Assembly: GCF_000497125.1 (NCBI RefSeq)
Contig: NC_090598.1
Span: 806,001-870,000, forward strand
From: Spironucleus salmonicida
Taxonomy: Eukaryota
Length of the DNA: 64,000 nucleotides
Reading direction: 5' to 3'
Positions 2,034 through 57,153 of the stretch are shown piece after piece; the stretch's first letter is position 1, and each line of letters opens with the position of its first letter. The notes beneath the pieces are model-generated. The model made no database searches and was not told the DNA's origin. It saw only the letters and a list, made by a program, of their open reading frames with translations. Made by a program: the position numbers and the translations under genes.

Positions 2034-3721
2034 TGTGCTTCTATAAATGATTTATACTAAATATCTTTTGTTATTAATTACTTTAAATTGTATTTTACGA
2101 TATTAAAGGCTTCAAGTACAGTCGTATTGCCTTCTTAATCAATAAGTACTTATCCTTTCTACCTTTTCATTTTATACAGAATATTACATCTATATAAATT
2201 TAGAATATAATGTAAACATAAATTATTAATAATAACTACAATAATATTTAATATATATCATGTATAACTAATTAGTTTAAACTATTATCAGTATGATATC
2301 ATAATAAATTGTTTATTATTTAAATTATTCTAATTATTAATAAACCTGCAAAATATATAAAATTATTATTAATCAAATAAAAACAAGTATAATCAAACAT
2401 TGCTAAATAAATGTTAATTATTCTTTACATTTTAAATAAAATGTATAAATAAGTGAATAGCGGAGATAACTTATAAAGTTTATCAAATATAAAATCAAAT
2501 ATTCACAAATTACTTGCTAGCACTTTTAGAGATGATACCATATATTACAAAAGTAACAATATAATTTATATTATTACCAAATAAACATATAAATTAGAAT
2601 ATTATATTTTACTAAATTGTATTATTAAATTTAAATGTTAAATTCAAATTTAAAACATCTAGTTAATTAATATTCCATATACAATTAGTAAATACAATAT
2701 ACTTAATACTGGTAAACCCTAAATTGTATAATCCAAAGAAGTTTGTAACTGATAATTGTCGAACCTTAATATCAATAGAAACGCTATATGTCATGAAATA
2801 TAATATTTTAAAATTTAAATACAAAGAATTTACTCATTAAGATAAGTTCTTTTTATATTTTTGTTCTACAAATTGTTATCAACAAGTTTATATAGTTAAA
2901 AATACTGAATGAAAATTTAATTTGATTAAATATCAAACAGTTTACAATATACTTTTTAAACATATAGTTAGTTACTATAGTTGATTTTCAGGTGAAACCT
3001 ATAATAAATAGAAAACTTTCATGCAACTAGTTCTTAATTTATTTCACTATAAACTTTAACTACAAGAATCATTAAATTGCTGCTAATGACAAAAGGGTAC
3101 TTTTTCTAGACTTATTTATATTCTATTGAACTTATATGTACATAAATTATTTGAAGCAATCCTATTATTTTCCTGATTTCGTGTATAGATTTGAGTTAAC
3201 ATTAATAATAAGATACACCTATTGATATGATATGGTATACTAAATCATGCAAAAACTATAAACATAGGTGTTGTGTCGCCTTCAGTTCTATTAAAACACA
3301 TAACTAAATATCTTTCATAAATACTAATATTAAAAATACCAAAGATATAATTCACTAGTTTGTGGAATCAAATAATATAGGATCTACTGCTATATCAATA
3401 GAAAATTGTTATTTAATCTTATAACCCGAGGTTTCAACAATAATTTCTTTTTCAAGCATTTTAAATTAAAAATATAATATTCATATAATAATAATTATGC
3501 ATTTAAAGTATACAAAATAAATATGTCTTAATAATTTAATAAGATTCTTCAAACATAGTTAATATATTCTTGATAATTCTGATAAAATCATAGTAAGAAT
3601 TTCAATAACATTATTATATTCTATAAAATAATTTTATAAAATAGTCTATCTCAACGAAAACCATGCCATTTAGCATCCTGCCATGGCGGAAACGTTGGCA
3701 GCCCAGAAATGAAGGACTCGC

Positions 3722-3910
3722 TCACATGTACCTGCGCCCGGACCGGCGGTAGTAGGGGCTGGTGTAGAACTGGCGCTGGCCGATAACCTGGCAGCCGCCC
3801 TGGTCCGTACCCGTGGGGATCAGGCCCGTCGGCACTGGTGCCTCCGGCTGTACCTCGGGGTTCTCGATGAAGACGCTCAGCGGCTGGTGGCGGGACTGCG
3901 GGGCGCCCAT
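3722..3910 (-). CDS. Small hypothetical protein (62 aa), MGAPQS N-terminus
   Basis: ATG preceded on the minus strand by CCACTCCCGCAA. GC-rich codons, TGA stop. Confidence 0.55.
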   Translation of the reverse strand: MGAPQSRHQPLSVFIENPEVQPEAPVPTGLIPTGTDQGGCQVIGQRQFYTSPYYRRSGRRYM

Positions 3911-4300
3911 TTGCGGGAGTGGAGCGGACGCTGCTGGCGTCCTGGAGGGATGCAGGGATCTGGAGAATAGCTCGGCTAGCCAGCTTCACGCATTGGCATG
4001 CACATGGGTAAGGTCTCCATGGGACCTTGGCGGGACAGACGCACCAGAATTTAGCCTCCAGGCAGCGGCGGGAGCTGCTACATTCTCACGTGTGTCCTAC
4101 CCATTAGCAAGGCAGCGGTGCTTAGCGCGTCGCCAATTTGATGTTTATGACCAGTAACACCAGAGATACAGACTGTCTAAATTTGCGGCACTGGCATCTG
4201 CAGAAACCGATTTATTTAGCATAAACGCATTATACTTCCGGCAATGAAATCCAGAAACTCCGGTATCGGTCCACAATACGTTGCAACCCATATTCCAAAA

Positions 4301-4489
4301 ATGCCGCTCCACCTCCGGATAAACAGTTTCGTGCCCAAGATGCTCGCGTCGCCACGGTGCTGCTTCATCGAGAAGGTTGCCGATCTGGACAATTTATGCG
4401 TGCGGGACTTCACCATGAAGCAGATCAGCAAGACGTGCCTCGTGGATCAGATTTGTGACAGCGCGTCCACGAGCGACATCGTGTTCTGA
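4301..4489 (+). CDS. Small Cys-containing protein (62 aa), MPLHLR family, paralog of 11769..11963
   Basis: MPLHLRINSF...LDNLCVRDF...CLVDQICDS aligns colinearly with the ORF at 11769. A-rich ATG context, TGA stop. Confidence 0.7.
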   Translation: MPLHLRINSFVPKMLASPRCCFIEKVADLDNLCVRDFTMKQISKTCLVDQICDSASTSDIVF

Positions 4490-4522
4490 GTGAGTGCAGT
4501 ATCCGCGAGTATGGCAGCCTCA

Positions 4523-5035
4523 TCACTTCCTGAACATCAGGCTTCGCCTCTCTCGCACAGCTCGACCCGTCTTCAGTTCCTGCTCGGCCCGCTCCAGCTG
4601 CCTCCTCTGGGATACGATATAGGTGATCTGGGCGACCAGTGTCTCGACCGAAAGGTGGCAGCTGCTAATTCCCCGTAGATCTTTCTCTGGTGGTGCGCAT
4701 GGCAGGATGGTGTCCATCCCTATCTGCCGGAACTAGGCTTTCTGCCTACCGGTGATGAACCGGGTGGGGCGGGCCTGCGGAGGTGAGAATCCGCCGTGGG
4801 TGAAGAAGAAGGCCTCACTGTCCTCAGCCTTGATCACATCCCTCCCTTTGGGGACTGTGTAGCGACAAGGCTCCGTACAGTGCTGGACCCGGCGCTAAAA
4901 CTAGGTCACCGCTGCCTGCTGCTGCGCAGACCTGAACCCCTGAACCAGGCTCTATTGCCGTGCCGGCCCCGTGCGGAGGCGATACTGCATGAAGTGTACT
5001 GCGTGGTCGGGTACGTATTTCGTGGGGAATGGCAT
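4523..5035 (-). CDS. Hypothetical protein (170 aa, code 6)
   Basis: Continuous code-6 frame MPFPTKYVPDHAVHF...RERRSLMFRK ending aAGTGA. Divergent from the HAD gene. Confidence 0.6.
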
Positions 5036-5079
5036 TTTGGCTTTTAATATGTGTCCGCACCTCTAGAGACATCTCCAAA

Positions 5080-5694
5080 ATGCAGACGATCTTCTTCGAC
5101 CTGGACGGAACCCTGGTGGACTCCCTGGCATCCATCGCCACCGCACTCAACGCTTCGAGACTCGTATTCGGCCTGGACCCGCTCCCTGATGCCGAGGTGT
5201 GCCGCTGCGTTGGCTGGGGCGCGAAGGCCCTGGTGGAGCGCACGGCCCCCGCCGCTGTGTAGGAGCAGCTGCTTGCGCACTACCTAGCCGAGCTGCACGC
5301 AGCTACCCCGGCCCTCTTCCCTGGGGTCGTCGAGCTGTTAGACGCGCTGCGGGCGGCTGGAAGGAACCGGCTCGTGGTGGCCTCGAACAAGCCGGAGGAC
5401 ACCCTGCAGCAACTAGTGGTCAAGCTCGGGCTGGCGCAGTACTTCGACGAGGTCAGGGGCGTCGGGGCCTTCCAACCAAAGCCCAATCCCGCCATCCTAG
5501 CGTGCGAACAGCGGGCCGTTCTCGTGGGGGACAGCGAGGTGGACGTGCAGACGGCCATCGCGGCCGGCATCCCAGTAGTGGCGGTCACCTACGGTTTCAG
5601 GACGCGCGCCGAGCTGGTGGGAGCGACGATTATCGTGGACTCCGTGGCGGAAATCAGGGAGGCGGTGGAACGGCTCCTGGGCGAAGAGGAGTGA
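5080..5694 (+). CDS. HAD-superfamily phosphatase, phosphoglycolate phosphatase (Gph)-like (204 aa)
   Basis: Motif I FFDLDGTLVDS, motif II ASNK, PKPNP, motif IV VGDSEVD. One in-frame TAG (Gln) joins two track ORFs. Ends gAGTGA. Confidence 0.92.
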
Positions 5695-13972: not shown

Positions 13973-14091
13973 TAATGATAATGATAATGATAATGATAAT
14001 GATAATGATAATGATAATGATAATGATAATGATAATGATAATGATAATGATAATGATAATGATAATGATAATGATAATGATAATGATAATG
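13973..14091. repeat. (TAATGA)n hexanucleotide microsatellite, about 20 perfect copies
   Basis: Directly visible. Lies between two convergent stop codons. Confidence 0.98.
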
Positions 14092-29975: not shown

Positions 29976-31325
<1,350 letters not shown>

Positions 31326-33980: not shown

Positions 33981-35596
33981 GGGGGCGTTCACTAGCTCGC
34001 CCGTGGAGGCTGCGGGGAATGCACCGGTTCGCCGTCCGTGGAGTGGGGGAAAATCTCAGAAGGGCCGCTTCGGCGGGGTCTGCGGCGGGCCCTGGAGCAC
34101 GCCGACGGCGAGGCGTCTGATGAACATCTCGGCGTGGACGAAGGCGTGGGCGGCGGTGGTCGCGGCGGTGATGTCGTAGCCCCAGTCGAAGCAGTCGCCG
34201 CCGGGGTGGTAGGCGACGTAGAGGCTGAGGTCGTACACCATGCCACGGTAGCTGACCCAGTGCTGGTCGCGGCGGGCCAGCACGTCGGCGGCGGTGTAGA
34301 AGGTGGCGTTGACGACCGCCATGTCGGGCTCCGGGAGCTTCTGCTGCACGCCCATGAACAGGTGGCCGGAGATGCGCCGGGACTCCATTCTTTGTATACT
34401 GGGAGTGGTTCGAAAAAAGATACTTGGTAACTAAAAAGTAAGGGGCGGCACCAGCGCACGGCGGCGGGCCACCGGCAGCCGCAGGCGAGTTCCGACATCC
34501 CGCGGCCGCGCCCCGAAGTAAGTGCGGAAGGGCGTGGAGCGGAATGGGGTGTGGAGCGTAAACCAGGGGGGGCCGGACGGCAGTGACAGCGCAACAGCTC
34601 ACCTGTAGAGGTTATCCTCGTCCTCGTCCTGCCCCTGCTGCTCCCCGTCCACGACCACGACCACGCCGCAGTCCTCGTTCAGCCCGACCTTGCCCTCGCT
34701 GACGACCCGCAGGCTCTGGCCGACGCTCTTCACGACCGGCGTCTCGTGGAGGGAGAAGCCCACCAGCCTGGCGCCCTTCTCGCTCTGGTAGTCCTCGATC
34801 TCCCTCCCCACGCGCGCGCTGACCTTGACGCTGTTCATGTCCGCGTCCACGCAGGTCACGACCTTCGGCTCGAGGCAGCACGCCAGCAGGTAGTACACCA
34901 TCGTGCACTTGGGCCTCGCCATCACCGACGCGGCGGGGGCGGCGAAGTTGAGCAGGCTCAGCAGCGCCGCGAGGGACTTGGGGTTCTTCAGGTTGATGCA
35001 CAGGCTGCCCCTCCCGCAGTAGAGCAGGCCGAACGCGATCTGGGCGTTCAGCAGGACGTGCTCGATCACGCCGTCGCTGTAGAACTTGCTCTCCACCGCG
35101 TGGCGCAGCACGCCGCAGATCTGGGAGTTCTGGCTGCCGCAGCCCACGATGCCCAGCGCCAGAATCGCGTTCGCCGAGAGCGTCTTGTCGCTGTTGAGGG
35201 CCAGCTTCTCCAGGTCCGAGATCGCCAGCTTGTCCGGGTTCGACGCGAAGCCGAGCGCGATCATGAAGGGCACCGCGCGGCGGGCGTGGATGTCGCAGAA
35301 CTGGAGAATCCGCTGCGCGTACCGGAGCAGGAACTCCGGGTTCTCGCGCAGGGAGATGGCGGAGATGCCGATCGCGAGCACCGTCATCGGGTCGAGGTTG
35401 TCCCCGGGCCAGATGAGGCGGTCCGAGGTGGGGAGCATCAGCGGCTGCCCGGACTCGGCGGTCACGGAGGTGATGTCCTCCTTGTTCTTGTTCTTCTTGA
35501 ACTGCGCGGACTTGTCGTACTTGATGATCTCGATAGCCTCCTCCGCCGCCACGCGGCCCAGCAGCACCGCCGAGAACGCCGACATCGTCTCCTGTA
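33940..35596 (-). repeat. Inverted duplication 2, native arm
   Basis: Reverse complement of 27768..29424. Both ends fall inside open reading frames here. Confidence 0.97.
34056..34388 (-). CDS. Cytochrome b5-like protein, copy B
   Basis: Identical to 28976..29308. Confidence 0.88.
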   Translation of the reverse strand: MESRRISGHLFMGVQQKLPEPDMAVVNATFYTAADVLARRDQHWVSYRGMVYDLSLYVAYHPGGDCFDWGYDITAATTAAHAFVHAEMFIRRLAVGVLQGPPQTPPKRPF

Positions 35597-37511
35597 GGAT
35601 GCGTGGGTCGTTGGATCCTGAATATGCAAATACCGTAATTAACGATTAGAGATATGCTGCTAGTTGCTTATTATCCTCTACAGCAGTAACTGCCATATGT
35701 TCGTTAGCTTAGTCAGGCTTCTTTACACTCTATAAAACATTTAAAATACTAGCAACAAATTCGTTACACTTAACAGCTTTATCAGCACAATTTGCTGCTT
35801 AGAAAAATATCAATGCAAGACCAATACAGCAGAGAGGGAAGAAACGAAGTAAACGTTGAGAACGTGAGTTTCCAGCGATAAGACGTAAAATTACGTTAGC
35901 GGAGTTAATATCACATGAACCCAAAGATATCATACCTAGTGCTAAGCAAGCAAATGATCTAGGATTTTTCTCCAATGATGGAATTTTCTCTGAAATATCA
36001 CAACTCGACTATCGCAAACGTTTAGCAATAATTTACTTACATTATTCATGGTTTGTGCCAAAATATGCCATTCCCATCCCGAATACTGCCAGTGCCTCCT
36101 TACAATTTGCCCATTCTACAGTAAGATCATTTTTACTGAGTTTGTCATGGTTTCTCGCATTTAATTAACAACCTGAACGATGAACTGTCAATTTAGCTTC
36201 AAGATCGCCAGACTCATCATCAAATGGGGTGAATTACCCAGCTAGTAATTTATAAACATAATCAAAGTGTTATGGGCGTGTTCCCTATGCAGCTATGCCA
36301 ATTCCTAATAAAGACCCTGCTCGGATATACTTATCAGTTGAATTCTAAAGTTTTATAAGCTATTCAAATGAACATTCATAACCTCCCCATAACCAAAGAA
36401 GACCAACTGAAGCAGCAGCCATGGCAGTAGATATATCACTTTTACCTGATTCTAAAGTTCCATTGGTCATTTTCAATAATAAGTTATATCCTTCTGGTAG
36501 TTACTTTTAATCGTTTCCAACGGCATTTTCAACTTTTTCTGTAGCAATTTAGCTTTCATTGACATTTTCCGTTTCCTGTGAAAAATCCATATCAGAATTA
36601 ATAAGAAAATCTGTTTTACAACCAGCATTCATGAATCCATTTTATAGAAAATCAGCAAGATAATGCTAAGACTTACTCCATTCTATTTGAATATCATCTC
36701 TCTTAAGAACATCATTTACAGATTTAGGAAGCGTTAAATTAAGTTATACTAACGAATTATTAAATAGTGGAGATTTATGCGCATTTCTTAATATAGGTAA
36801 ATGTTTTTCTTGAACAATAATTTAATCCTATATAATTTCTTAATATGGTGCTAGCATGAGTGAAATTTATAGCTTCTCAGCATCATTTGCACTATCATAT
36901 ATCATTTGCATCTATTACCAGTTTTAGGATTATATATAAAGTTTTGATGCCTAAATATAAAATTTTCCATTTGTTAAAATATTTGCTAAAAAATTGAATT
37001 TCTCGTATTAATCCTCATAATTTGTGGTTAGTTTAAGACAATTAATTAAATATAACATTACTCTATCCACGTTTTGTGATGTTAAAAATGGAGATATTAA
37101 CGAGTAGTCTACGATAGAAATACAGTCTAGCATATCTATTTCTCTATTTTCCTAATTGAGAAATAACAAAATTTCTGTTAATTTAGTATCCTTGCTTTGT
37201 GCTAATTTGACAGCTGCGATTCTGGCAAGTTCAATAGGTAGAGTTTTAAAGTTAGCTAAATTAGATAACTCAATAATTTAAGCATCTTCAGGTGTAAAAA
37301 TAAGCAATAATTTGAGTAAAAGTTAACCCGTTTATGGATACTTCTTAAGTGTATCAATATGATTTGATAGCTCTTACAAACAAAGCGATGTATTTAGTTT
37401 GGAATCCTCAGTTTATTAGGTTAGAAGATATAACTAGGAGGTTGAGTCTGGTAACCGAGTAATGAGTTCAGATATTGTTTATTAAATTTATGTCTTATCA
37501 GAGGAGGTCAT
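34599..37511 (-). CDS. RPN1: 26S proteasome regulatory subunit Rpn1/PSMD2 (about 970 aa)
   Basis: EIDMLD...NVDRVMLYL, NGFMNAG, PC-repeat segments, RRAVP...LG..SNP, AQIAFGLLYCGRG, VSARVG...GFSLHETPV. The ATG at 37511 is in frame with the track ORF. Not every internal codon was checked. Confidence 0.9.
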
Positions 37512-38220
37512 TTAGAGGTGTGGAAGGGGGTACCAAAAATGTTAATATTATATAAAAGTATGTTAAAAACTTGATTCTATTGGCAATAATTTGGTAGGAT
37601 TTAGTTCTCTAAATACAGTGAATGAAATTGATTCAAGAAAATATAAATACAAGTAATCATGTCCTAATATCTATTAGTTTAGCACACCATGAATATTCCA
37701 AGTTTAAAAAATAACTTGTTGATTTCACATTATATAAAGTAACAAATTATTTTGCCATCTGCTATATAATTTGAATTCTTACCTTGTTGTATATTAAAAT
37801 AGTTACTGAAATAGTTAGCTATTTCATATAGTTAAAATTTGTAATTATGACACTGAATATTCGATAATATTTTAAATCACACCAAAAACAAAATTTTGAG
37901 TTATATTATAGGTTCATCTATTATAAATATAAAATATTATAAATTTCTTAATACTGTTGATTATATTTTATCGAACAATTATTTACTTTATTTTATTATA
38001 TAACAGTAATAACTATAATTATTCATTCGAAAATTGAATTAAATAATTTACGTAACTTCAAATAACGAATTTTTAAGTTTTCATCACTATTATAATACTG
38101 AGTATCATATATTAATAATTATCTTTTAAATATCTAAAGTAAAAGTATGCTTGATTGGAAGTAGTAAGTTATTCATATCTGAATCTTATCAGTATTTAAA
38201 ACAATTATGATGGCCCGGTC

Positions 38221-39530
38221 CCTGCACCCAACCGGTACTTCGTGGTACATCTGGGCCCAACCGGTACTTCGTGGTACACCTGGGCCCAACCGGTACTTCG
38301 TGGTACACCTGGGCCCAACCGGTACTTCGTGGTACACCTGCCCCCCTACCGGTACCTGGGCCCAACCGGTACTTCGTGGTACACCTGGGCCCAACCGGTA
38401 CTCTCCCCCCCGTCGTGGTACACCTGGGCCCAACCGGTACTTCGTGGTACACCTGCGCCCAACCGGTACTTCGTGGTACACCTGGGCCCAACCGGTACGT
38501 CGTGGTACACCTGCGCCCAACCGGTACTTCGTGGTACACCTGGGCCCAACCGGTACGTCGTGGTACACCTGCGCCCAACCGGTACTTCGTGGTACACCTG
38601 GCCCAACCGGTACTTCGTGGTACACCTGGGCCCAACCGGTACTTCGTGGTACACCTGGGCCCAACCGGTACTTCGTGGTACACCTGGGCCCAACCGGTAC
38701 TTCGTGGTACACCTGCGCCCAACCGGTACTTCGTGGTACACCTGGGCCCAACCGGTACTTCGTGGTACATCTGGGCCCAACCGGTACTCGTGGTACACCT
38801 GGCCCAACCGGTACTTCGTGGTACACCTGGGCCCAACCGGTACGTCGTGGTACACCTGGGCCCAACCGGTACGTCGTGGTACACCTGGCCCAACCGGTAC
38901 TTCGTGGTACACCTGGGCCCAACCGGTACTTCGTGGTACACCTGGGCCCAACCGGTACGTCGTGGTACACCTGGGCCCAACCGGTACGTCGTGGTACACC
39001 TGCGCCCAACCGGTACTTCGTGGTACACCTGGGCCCAACCGGTACTTCGTGGTACACCTGGGCCCAACCGGTACGTCGTGGTACACCTGGGCCCAACCGG
39101 TACTTCGTGGTACACCTGGGCCCAACCGGTACGTCGTGGTACACCTGGGCCCAACCGGTACTTCGTGGTACACCTGGGCCCAACCGGTACGTCGTGGTAC
39201 ACCTGGGCCCAACCGGTACTTCGTGGTACACCTGGGCCCAACCGGTACGTCGTGGTACACCTGGGCCCAACCGGTACTTCGTGGTACACCTGGGCCCAAC
39301 CGGTACGTCGTGGTACACCTGGGCCCAACCGGTACTTCGTGGTACATCCTGGGCCCAACCGGTACTTCGTGGTACACCTGGGCCCAACCGGTACGTCGTG
39401 GTACACCTGGGCCCAACCGGTACTTCGTGGTACACCTGGGCCCAACCGGTACGTCGTGGTACACCTGGGCCCAACCGGTACTTCGTGGTGCATCTGGGCC
39501 CAACCGGTACTTCGTGGTACACCGGGGCCC
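38221..39530. repeat. GC-rich 29-bp tandem minisatellite, about 45 units of GGGCCCAACCGGTAC(T/G)TCGTGGTACACCT
   Basis: Directly visible head-to-tail units with no spacers, a few 1-nt indels, and alternating T/G variants. Confidence 0.98.
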
Positions 39531-40969
39531 GCGGCTCGGCCCCTGCGCCAGCCCGGGAGTGAATAAATATTTTACTAAAATCACGATTTCAGTATATATT
39601 AGTTGCTAAAATAAGATTTAATATTATAATAAAGCAAAATAAAATATTAATGCTCAATTATTATAATCATATATAATGAAATTTTGATTTATATTATCAT
39701 TTTAATTGAAGAGTTAATTAAAATGTTTAATTCCTAGTTTTTAATGCCAGTATTAATTTCTCATGGTTATTATTAGAATATTAAGGAATGATAATATAAA
39801 TCATATAATAAAATTTAAATATTTTAATCGCATAATTTTATGCAACCTAATACTTTTCTAAGATTTTTCTTGTTAATCTTTAAAAAATGTATTTACCTCT
39901 CTTATTTTAATAAATATATAATAATAATAATATTGTAAAAGAAATTTATATAGTTTTACAATATAAAACAAATTATTACTATCTGTAACACAAATAAAAA
40001 CTAAATATTTAACTTTTAACTAAAAATCTTGCTCAGTTCTCATAAAAACAAGTTGTTTTTATAGAAGTAATATTGTAATACAGTCCAGTACTTATAAATT
40101 ATGATATATTATTTAATAATTAATTTTTTGATGAAAATGATATCCTACATTAAATTACAATAAAATAAAGTTTCATCTTTAAATCCTAAATTTTCTAATT
40201 CCGATTCATTTCAATAATTAGCATATATAACAATTTTGCTAATAAATAAAATACTTTAAAAAATAACAATAAATTACAACCGTCAAATTTAGCATAATTT
40301 TTGATAAATCCAGGTGTGAAAATTTTGCTTATTTATGTCTGAATATTTAATACATAAGATTATAAATCATTTTGTACCATAAAAAATAAAGATAATGAGT
40401 GTAATTATATGATAAATGTAAAGAAGCATAAATATAAATTAAAGAATCATGATGTATATATTTTTCCAGAGGTTGGGAAAAGTGATTGATCTTCAAATTT
40501 TTCGTTGAAAAAATTATCGAGATTAAGCACAATAATAACAAAGAAATTAGTTTCTTATAATAAATTAATAGTTATTTAATAAATGAGTAATCACAAAATA
40601 GATAACAAAATGATTTTAAAAATATGAATTAGTATTATGAATAAACTATATTTGAAGTCGGTTTTATCTACCCAGAAGGATATTTTTAGAAATTATACTT
40701 TATGATTATGTTATAAATCATCTAATAAGAAAATATTTTTACTTGCTTAACACAACTAACAATGTATTACAGAAACAATAATATCATTAATATGTTTCAA
40801 TATAAAAAATTATGTTGATGTACATAAAAATATACAATACAGGTAATAACAAGAGTAGGGTTTTTTACAGTTACTGTTATAAACCACATTTAGATTTTAA
40901 CACTATTCATTATTATTATATGATATTTATGATATTTATTTCATTGGTTCTTAATAGATTTGTTTTAAA

Positions 40970-42319
40970 ATGCCCGCCAAGACCGTGCAAGATTTAAAGA
41001 ATGTACTTTAATAGAGAGATGCTCACAACATTGAATTCTGCCAAGCTGTAAACGAGGTAATTGACTCCTTAACAGTTGTGTTTGAAGAAAATCCAAAATA
41101 CATATCTGTATTTGAACAATTATTAGAACCAGAACGCGTTATAATGTTTAGAGTACCTTGGACTGATGATAAAGGAGAAGTTAATATTAACAGAGGTTAT
41201 AGAGTTTAATATAACTCTGCTTTGGGCCCCTACAAAGGTGGACTACGTTTCCACCCTTCAGTCAACATCTCTGTGCTCAAGTTCCTGGGTTTCGAACAGA
41301 TTCTCAAAAACTCCCTCACAACCCTTCCAATGGGAGGCGGTAAAGGCGGTAGCGACTTTGATCCTAAGGGTAAATCCAACGGTGAAGTTATGCGTTTCTG
41401 TCAGTCCTTCATGACCGAGCTCAGCAGGCACATTGGTCAGTTCACTGACGTTCCAGCTGGCGACATCGGTGTCGGTGGCAGAGAGATCGGCTACATGTTT
41501 GGTCAGTACAAGAGAATCCAGAACCAGTTTACAGGAATTTTGACCGGAAAGGCATACAGTTGGGGCGGTTCGCTTATCAGACCAGAAGCTACTGGTTACG
41601 GGGCAGTGTATTACCTTAACGAGATGATGCTCGACAACGGAGACGATATCAAAGGCAAGAGAGTTCTCCTCTCCGGATCTGGCAATGTTGCGCAGTTCGC
41701 ATCAGAGAAGCTCCTCCATTACGGTGCTATCCCGCTTTCTCTCTCCGACTCTAACGGTACCATTATCGAACCTAACGGCTTTACTGCGGAGCAGCTCAAG
41801 ATGGTTATGGACCTCAAGAACATTAAGAGAGGCAGACTCTCCGAGTACACCTCCATGTCCTCCACCGCCAAGTACTATGAAGGCCAGCGCCCATGGGCCG
41901 TATACGAAGGGAAAGTGGACGTCATCATGCCTTGCGCTACCCAGAACGAGGTCAACGGCACCGAAGCCGAGAGAGTCATCAAGCTTGGGCTCAGGTATGT
42001 TTCCGAAGGCGCCAACATGCCATCCAATGACGACGCTATCCACGCATACCACTCCAGCAAGGTTTTCTACGGCCCTGCTAAGGCATCAAACGCCGGCGGT
42101 GTCGCTACATCAGGTCTCGAGATGACTCAAAACTCCAACAGGCTTCAGTGGTCGGCCGAGAAGGTTGATGCTGAGTTACACGCCATTATGAAGAAGATCT
42201 TTTAACAGTGCAAGCAGACCGCGGAAAAGTACAACAAAAAGGGCAACTACCAGTTTGGTGCCAACGTTGCTGGATTCCTTAAGGTTGCAGATAGCATGAT
42301 TGATTAAGGATGCGTCTGA
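40970..42319 (+). CDS. gdh: NADP-specific glutamate dehydrogenase, copy 2 (449 aa)
   Basis: Near-identical direct repeat of 29976..31325, offset 10994 bp, with canonical RPEATG. Confidence 0.97.

Positions 42320-56835: not shown

Positions 56836-57153
<318 letters not shown>

Follow-up and report, generated by a model that had tools for sequence, protein, structure and literature searches.

Tandem repeat arrays that occupy one site per chromosome and consist of chromosome-specific units are described in Trypanosoma brucei (PMC1868937). According to the available text of the respective sources, these arrays are bound by a kinetochore protein and partly transcribed into small RNA (PMC12975129), and they are much longer than assembled (PMC3292466). 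Besides CIR147, there are divergent arrays of ~29-30 and 120 bp. Most of the arrays are AT-rich (49-75% AT); their true length is 20-120 kb, they are flanked by retroelements, and in part they belong to one family. Topoisomerase-II cleavage and ChIP of the kinetochore have proven their function. A second system is the GC-rich DR1/DR2 repeat of kaposin in KSHV, whose non-triplet unit of variable copy number is reported to give one peptide repeat in different reading frames (PMC8906436; bioRxiv 10.1101/2024.09.20.614208). In this way, 23-nt repeats encode 23-aa repeats, and the abundant transcript gives rise to detected proteins (PMC8906436). Finally, the genome of Spironucleus salmonicida itself, with nine chromosomes, is reported to be AT-rich and to contain GC-rich, homogenised duplications with sharp edges, which are gene-bearing, segmental or inverted and found in many places (PMC9509377).

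The 29-bp array analyzed here is located on the chromosome-scale contig C3 of S. salmonicida, in a stretch of 64,000 nucleotides referred to as the window. Together with counterparts on other chromosomes, it resembles the T. brucei arrays in the apparent pattern of one array per chromosome, with short units that differ between chromosomes and with only a few kb represented in an incomplete assembly. In contrast to T. brucei, the arrays are GC-rich, 5-12 kb long as assembled, built from an own unit each and embedded in gene-dense DNA; as centromeres, they are candidates. The C3 array has the additional feature of lying between divergent genes. With a GC content of 63%, a 29-bp unit and Rpn1/GDH flanks, it falls outside the CIR147 type, which is characterized by AT-rich ~147/~30-bp units and INGI/DIRE flanks. 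The C3 array may function in the manner of the T. brucei arrays, though it is no member of that family. The likeness to kaposin lies in the GC-rich, non-triplet unit of variable copy number that can be read as the same peptide repeat in different frames; the C3 array differs in that its expression is at most very low and that its seven sibling arrays are without a consistent gene bracket. Like the S. salmonicida duplications, the arrays are sharply bounded GC-rich repeats within an AT-rich genome, but they are short-unit tandem repeats at one locus each.

Genomic context of the 29-bp array

The minisatellite array extends from position 38227 to 39530 of the window (no strand assigned; period 29, 45.1 copies, 92% matches), at 0.465 of the length of C3. 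The preliminary description, made from the letters of this stretch, had reported about 45 units containing GGGCCC, ACCGGT and two GTAC palindromes within about 3.4 kb of AT-rich DNA, and both statements hold: the palindromes are present in the unit, and the gap of ~3.4 kb between the end of the Rpn1-like gene (37511) and the start of the glutamate dehydrogenase gene (GDH, 40970) contains a left spacer of 21% GC (37512..38206) and a right spacer of 18% GC (39563..40969), both without assigned strand. The proteasome Rpn1-like gene on the left (34599..37511, minus strand) encodes 970 aa in code 6, with matches to PF17781 and PF01851, and the GDH gene on the right (40970..42319, plus strand) encodes 449 aa in code 6, with matches to PF00208 and PF02812. 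Both housekeeping genes point away from the array, at distances of 0.7 and 1.4 kb. The host is a hexamitid diplomonad, a parasite of fish. Since the Rpn1-like and GDH genes read through TAA and TAG, it uses code 6, with TGA as the sole stop codon.

On the plus strand, the array is preceded by a GC-rich head (38207..38226) that begins with ATGATG and, judged by eye from the sequence, resembles the tail motif in degenerate form. The GC-rich tail (39531..39562, plus strand) consists of repeat-like pieces, occurs at a single locus and ends with AGTGA, a putative stop/polyadenylation signal of S. salmonicida in the available text of PMC3916229. A putative open reading frame runs through the array from head to tail (38207..39562, plus strand). 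As had been proposed, its ATG at 38207 is in frame with the TGA at 39560-62 (gAGTGA), giving 451 aa in the window; the corresponding frame in the longer version of the locus described below has 1,807 aa.

Further repeats were observed in the window. Three inverted-repeat pairs of 1.5-3.3 kb are 100% identical (14379-17679/19400-22700, 27768-29424/33940-35596 and 58608-60059/62549-64000). The arms of the latter two are GC-rich, and in the pair 27768-29424/33940-35596 the 3' portion of the Rpn1-like gene is duplicated together with a small neighboring ORF. Two near-identical GDH genes (29976-31325 and 40970-42319) lie 11 kb apart with 98.5% DNA identity. Microsatellites comprise (GATT)76 at 56836-57149 and (TAATGA)20 at 13973-14091.

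The array is collapsed in the chromosome assembly

The assembly (G000) consists of 42 contigs, nine of 0.62-1.92 Mb and 33 small ones. One of the small contigs, C25, represents the same locus as the window, with flanks that are identical over 5,995 and 6,568 bases. Here, the array spans 5.4 kb (G000:C25:5996-11367) and 184 units, namely 172 of 29 bp, 11 of 32 bp and one terminal unit. It is thus a homogeneous multi-kb tandem array (92% matches) with higher-order variant blocks, as repeated blocks of 5-9 units are found in its variant string. The 32-bp unit is absent from the window, where seven of the 45 units have odd lengths, and none of five odd-length words from the window that were compared with C25 occurs there. 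In a DNA sequencing run (X1), two array words were found at 18.4x and 16.3x the depth of a neighboring single-copy contig, a ratio that is not equal to a copy number, and X1 may be the assembly's own sample. The same words have 22 and 18 copies in C25 and two each in the window, and the depth in X1 fits C25. The array in the window is therefore a collapsed, error-bearing copy, and C25 is about four times longer. A minority short allele may exist beside the C25 version.

This bears on the T/G alternation of neighboring units, which had been noted as a 58-bp higher-order pattern over about 39030-39350. The alternation is present (~39041-39476, no strand assigned), but the collapse accounts for part of the long 58-bp run. 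T and G alternate in 55% of the steps in C25 overall and in 76% of those in the last 22 units, where a higher-order pattern of 4-5-unit blocks is seen at the 3' end. As several arrays are under-represented in the chromosome assembly, ORFs read from them are unreliable.

Long tandem arrays across the chromosomes

A check of the per-chromosome distribution of the repeat had been proposed. The C3 unit itself is confined to one locus: all 207 matches in the genome fall on the window (40) and on C25 (167). When metagenome contigs were scanned once for the exact pattern, no match to the unit was obtained. Arrays of a similar kind, however, are present on eight chromosomes. They were identified by scanning the small contigs (487,755 + 5,152 = 492,907 of ~520,000 bases) for arrays longer than 3 kb whose period is 18-69 bp, class limits that were in part fixed during mapping and are hence partly post hoc. 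Eleven arrays were obtained and mapped to the nine chromosome-scale contigs, five of which start with telomeric repeats.

Two of the 11 arrays map to C1, a GC-rich 33-bp array (contig C24, C1:908-916 kb) and a 21/22-bp array of 31% GC (C18, C1:1,001-1,005 kb). C2 harbors a 37/19-bp array (C35, C2:539-545 kb), C3 the 29/32-bp array (C25, C3:844-846 kb) and C4 an 18/20-bp array (C26, C4:833-834 and 841-853+ kb). The remaining non-coding arrays have units of 22 bp (C31, C6:991-1,002 kb), 25 bp (C17, C7:827-828 kb), 34/35 bp (C22, C8:199-209 kb) and 44 bp (C13, C9:428-429 kb). The last two of the 11 are coding repeats with unique ends, an in-frame 33-bp repeat in a 2,584-aa ORF (C30, C6:1.34 Mb) and an in-frame 54-bp repeat in a 2,900-aa ORF (C36, C4:0.11 Mb).

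Eight arrays are GC-rich (59-72%) and apparently non-coding; they differ in their units and are 4.8-12 kb long, reaching 8-12 kb where the assembly is best. As on C3 (207/207), a single locus holds all pattern matches for the arrays of C6 (601/601) and C4 (259/259, in two blocks 7 kb apart); for the other five arrays, the single locus was judged among the matches listed. At two loci, the repeat recurs in a short additional block at a distance of 7 kb, inverted at C1:908-916 kb and direct at C4:833-853 kb. The ORFs flanking the other arrays gave a Pfam match in six of 27 cases, too few to derive a rule of divergent neighboring genes.

The eight units share 66 6-mers, compared to 40 expected. 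Some short words are common to the units above the level of dinucleotide shuffles: CCAG/CTGG in all eight and GGTACC, GGGCCC and GAGCAC in subsets. Shared motifs were nevertheless rejected as a marker of a family because they are also enriched in the coding arrays of C36 and of C5 (45-bp unit). Word sharing that includes coding arrays points to a bias in the word content of homogenised repeats throughout the genome.

Several repeats were set aside before the arrays were counted by chromosome: telomeric TAGG arrays, simple repeats of period 1-8, 345/672/1,504-bp arrays of telomere-bearing contigs and the coding C30 and C36. In addition, either C18 or C24 was left out, depending on whether the class is defined as GC-rich and non-coding or as non-triplet. 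Among the simple repeats set aside, the (TAATATAG)n arrays are subtelomeric, those of C11 and C16 are interior, and C19 and C42 are unmapped. The (TAATATAG)n arrays extend over multiple kb on C20, C37, C38, C39, C40 and C41, and their shared flank maps to C1, C2, C3, C4 and C7, in each case no more than about 30 kb from an end of the contig. The interior arrays of C11 (C1:195 kb) and C16 (C2:359 kb), 3.7-7 kb long with the motifs (TATAT)n and (TAATAC)n, are alternative AT-rich structural candidates. Contig G000:C27 (3,188 bases) is essentially one T run and probably an assembly artefact.

Distribution along the chromosomes

The GC-rich non-coding arrays lie on eight different chromosomes in eight of eight cases (C1-C4 and C6-C9; length-weighted P=0.006). 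The same 8/8 count is obtained for the non-triplet class, in which C18 is included and C24 is not. Such an array is thus found on eight of the nine chromosome-scale contigs. The relative positions range from 0.19 to 0.69, with five of the eight within 0.46-0.60, and the mean offset from the chromosome middle is 0.11 (P=0.002-0.004 in a post hoc test) vs 0.29 for five other long arrays. The support depends on the class: P is 0.026 if both C1 arrays are counted, which lie 85 kb apart, and 0.11 for all 11 arrays. Likewise, nine non-coding minisatellites together with the two interior simple-repeat arrays give P=0.11, and adding the coding arrays gives 0.25.

The main alternative to a chromosomal function is a neutral VNTR, in which slippage and unequal exchange expanded a short intergenic duplication and biased gene conversion raised its GC content, the pattern of one array per chromosome arising from chance and from the definition of the class. 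The widest definition (P 0.11-0.25) agrees with this explanation, as do the confinement of the unit to a single locus, its absence from the metagenome scan, the two arrays on C1, the lack of an array in the sampled part of C5, and the reported GC-richness of duplicated S. salmonicida regions in PMC9509377. The openness of the frames, the palindromes and the folding, all near chance, point the same way. On the other hand, both the placement of eight arrays on eight distinct chromosomes and their central position have P<=0.006 under the narrower definitions, and coding and simple-repeat arrays do share array-bearing chromosomes and are not central. Overall, we consider neutrality an unlikely explanation that must nonetheless be taken seriously.

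C5 was predicted to carry a ninth non-triplet array. None was found in the ~197 kb sampled (11% of C5), which were densest at 753-1,005 kb. A 34.7-kb run of N is located at 916-951 kb (0.53-0.55 of C5), with no array touching its edges. A 45-bp array at C5:878,023-881,160 was rejected as the ninth member because its period is a multiple of three and it is in frame, between unique ends of 230 aa and 221 aa; its unit has one 9-mer in common with the C2 and C6 units. As this coding array exists without a small contig, the census of arrays is incomplete: arrays assembled without a small contig escape it, and a statement of exactly one array per chromosome is beyond its scope. Together with C30 (33-bp) and C36 (54-bp), the locus at G000:C5:877.3-881.8 kb (45-bp) makes three giant ORFs on in-frame repeats with 70-180 copies.

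Open reading frames and transcription of the C3 array

That the array is open in all six frames had been regarded as a distinctive feature. There is indeed no TGA inside the array, neither in the window nor in C25, and all three frames of one strand are open, as in kaposin. When the unit was shuffled, however, 72% of the shuffles were without TGA on one strand, 45% on both strands, and 12% were without any standard stop codon. Since only TGA stops translation in the host code and 45% of the shuffles are open on both strands, six open frames are unremarkable. Similarly, the palindrome content of the unit is reached in ~5% of the shuffles (P about 0.05), single-strand folding of the array shows no excess over shuffles (z=+0.95), and the Rfam 15 covariance models gave no matches in the window region 37400-41000 at E up to 1. 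A minus-strand ATG at 39493, proposed as a further gene-like signal, sits in an internal variant unit, and 37 such CAT sites are found in C25.

The array could be a gene or a lncRNA, with a plus-strand transcript that starts just upstream of the ATG at 38207, ends at the AGTGA signal and either encodes a kaposin-style protein of ~1,800 aa or functions as a repeat RNA. The best point in favor of a gene is the frame from ATG to AGTGA: the GC-rich block starts at the ATG and stops at AGTGA, in frame both in the window and in C25, where 183 units (61 x 3) are preceded by a head of 27 nt and followed by a last unit of 57 nt. Of the 2,039 TGA words in the window, 88 belong to AGTGA, the putative stop/polyA signal (PMC3916229). 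Kaposin provides a precedent for the frameshift-proof repeat protein that had been suggested (PMC8906436), and the frame is maintained over 1,807 aa in C25. The openness itself is at chance level, though, and the duplications do not proceed in steps of three units. Repeated blocks in the C25 variant string have offsets of 5, 18, 7, 10 and 81 units, and duplication offsets of at least five units fall on residues 0/1/2 mod 3 in 4/4/3 cases. Without a preference for multiples of three, no selection on the frame is seen, and the stop would be expected to fall out of frame if one unit were gained or lost. A non-triplet unit and the lack of frame selection speak for non-coding DNA, yet the ATG-TGA frame is intact in both versions.

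Comparison with other loci also argues against a gene. A comparable pair of ATG and stop encloses the C9 array (-14/+55), and the exact AGTGA ending is found in none of the nine neighboring ORFs that were read as genes. AGTGA was also observed at most ~10 bases past the right edge of the C8 array (G000:C22), a weak parallel to the C3 array; it was not seen beside the other arrays in the flank stretches examined. The ORFs of the window and of C25 are absent from the protein collection in which both flanking genes are present, a weak criterion as the giant coding-repeat ORFs of C30 and C36 are absent as well. Pfam returned one 9-residue match at the cut-off, and the ESM Atlas yielded bacterial hypothetical proteins of low recognition with a best score of 0.87.

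Repeat words were found in unstranded contigs from three runs of one study, which are presumed to be RNA, in line with a transcript. The depth per array copy is ~1.5-4 in these presumed-RNA runs, a level that DNA carry-over could give, vs 3,600-5,600 for GDH in two of them. It is compatible with faint transcription or DNA carry-over. In the region 39470-41300, no contig of the three runs covers the right spacer or the unique tail, although contigs cannot show absence. Taken together, a gene or lncRNA at the C3 array is improbable.

A candidate CenH3-like histone

G000 encodes a candidate CenH3-like histone. The divergent H3 at G000:C3:1,310,189-1,310,578 has a loop 1 that is seven residues longer than in canonical H3, and it carries F and T substitutions which we take to be CenH3 hallmarks. 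In a comparison with PDB, the best match is a plain H3 (9e-21), followed by Cnp1 of fission yeast (1.6e-19) and then by CENP-A chimeras. A longer loop 1 is described as a trait of CenpA, and diplomonads are reported to be without CenpC, in the available text of bioRxiv 10.1101/2021.03.14.435266. Further divergent H3 genes were observed, a 146-aa variant with matches at C6:750 kb, 855 kb and 1,505 kb and a short variant at C7:282 kb. A paper on cenH3 of Giardia has reportedly been published.

Candidate centromeres of S. salmonicida

A centromere is the simplest explanation for a tandem array that occurs once per chromosome and in a mid-chromosome position. A centromere-like or other structural satellite had been among the first suggestions for the C3 array. 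It gained support from the per-chromosome distribution, with the modification that the chromosomes share no common repeat and each has its own unit. From the sequence data, we would give an even chance to the proposal that C3 has a small regional centromere with the 29-bp array as its DNA core, this array being one of a chromosome-specific set. Slightly less confidence attaches to the broader proposal that on each chromosome its own 5-12-kb GC-rich array among housekeeping genes would be the centromere and that the C3 array might also yield low-level polyadenylated RNA ending at AGTGA.

Under the centromere proposal, the CenH3-like histone would load on the arrays, and the kinetochore would form there. 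The arrays would evolve separately from one another via unequal exchange and conversion. This would account for the differing units and, with GC-biased conversion, for the GC content as well. Both the openness of the frames and their bracketing by ATG and AGTGA would be by-products, or at most features of a low-level non-coding transcript. Some observations argue against centromeres: the C3 array is GC-rich and close to housekeeping genes (0.7 and 1.4 kb), unlike the mostly AT-rich T. brucei arrays, none was found in the sampled 11% of C5, and C1 has two candidates (33-bp GC-rich; 21/22-bp, 31% GC). Another structural element present once per chromosome, such as a pairing or cohesion site, a nuclear anchor or a dominant replication origin, would explain the same distribution, and chromosome mechanics may be unusual in diplomonads given the reported lack of CenpC, but nothing positive points to such a role and the centromere is the common repeat element of this kind, which makes this explanation very improbable.

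No description of diplomonad centromere DNA or of arrays of the C3 type was found in the freely accessible main texts covered, and the word stem "centromer" is absent from the available text of PMC9509377, PMC3916229 and PMC7641422. As far as this search reached, the eight arrays would be the first candidates for centromere DNA in diplomonads. The outcome of the analysis is a set of eight coordinates and a candidate CenH3 gene. If the centromere proposal is true, the chromosomes of S. salmonicida, which belongs to a lineage whose kinetochore is reduced, would each have a satellite centromere built from its own unit.
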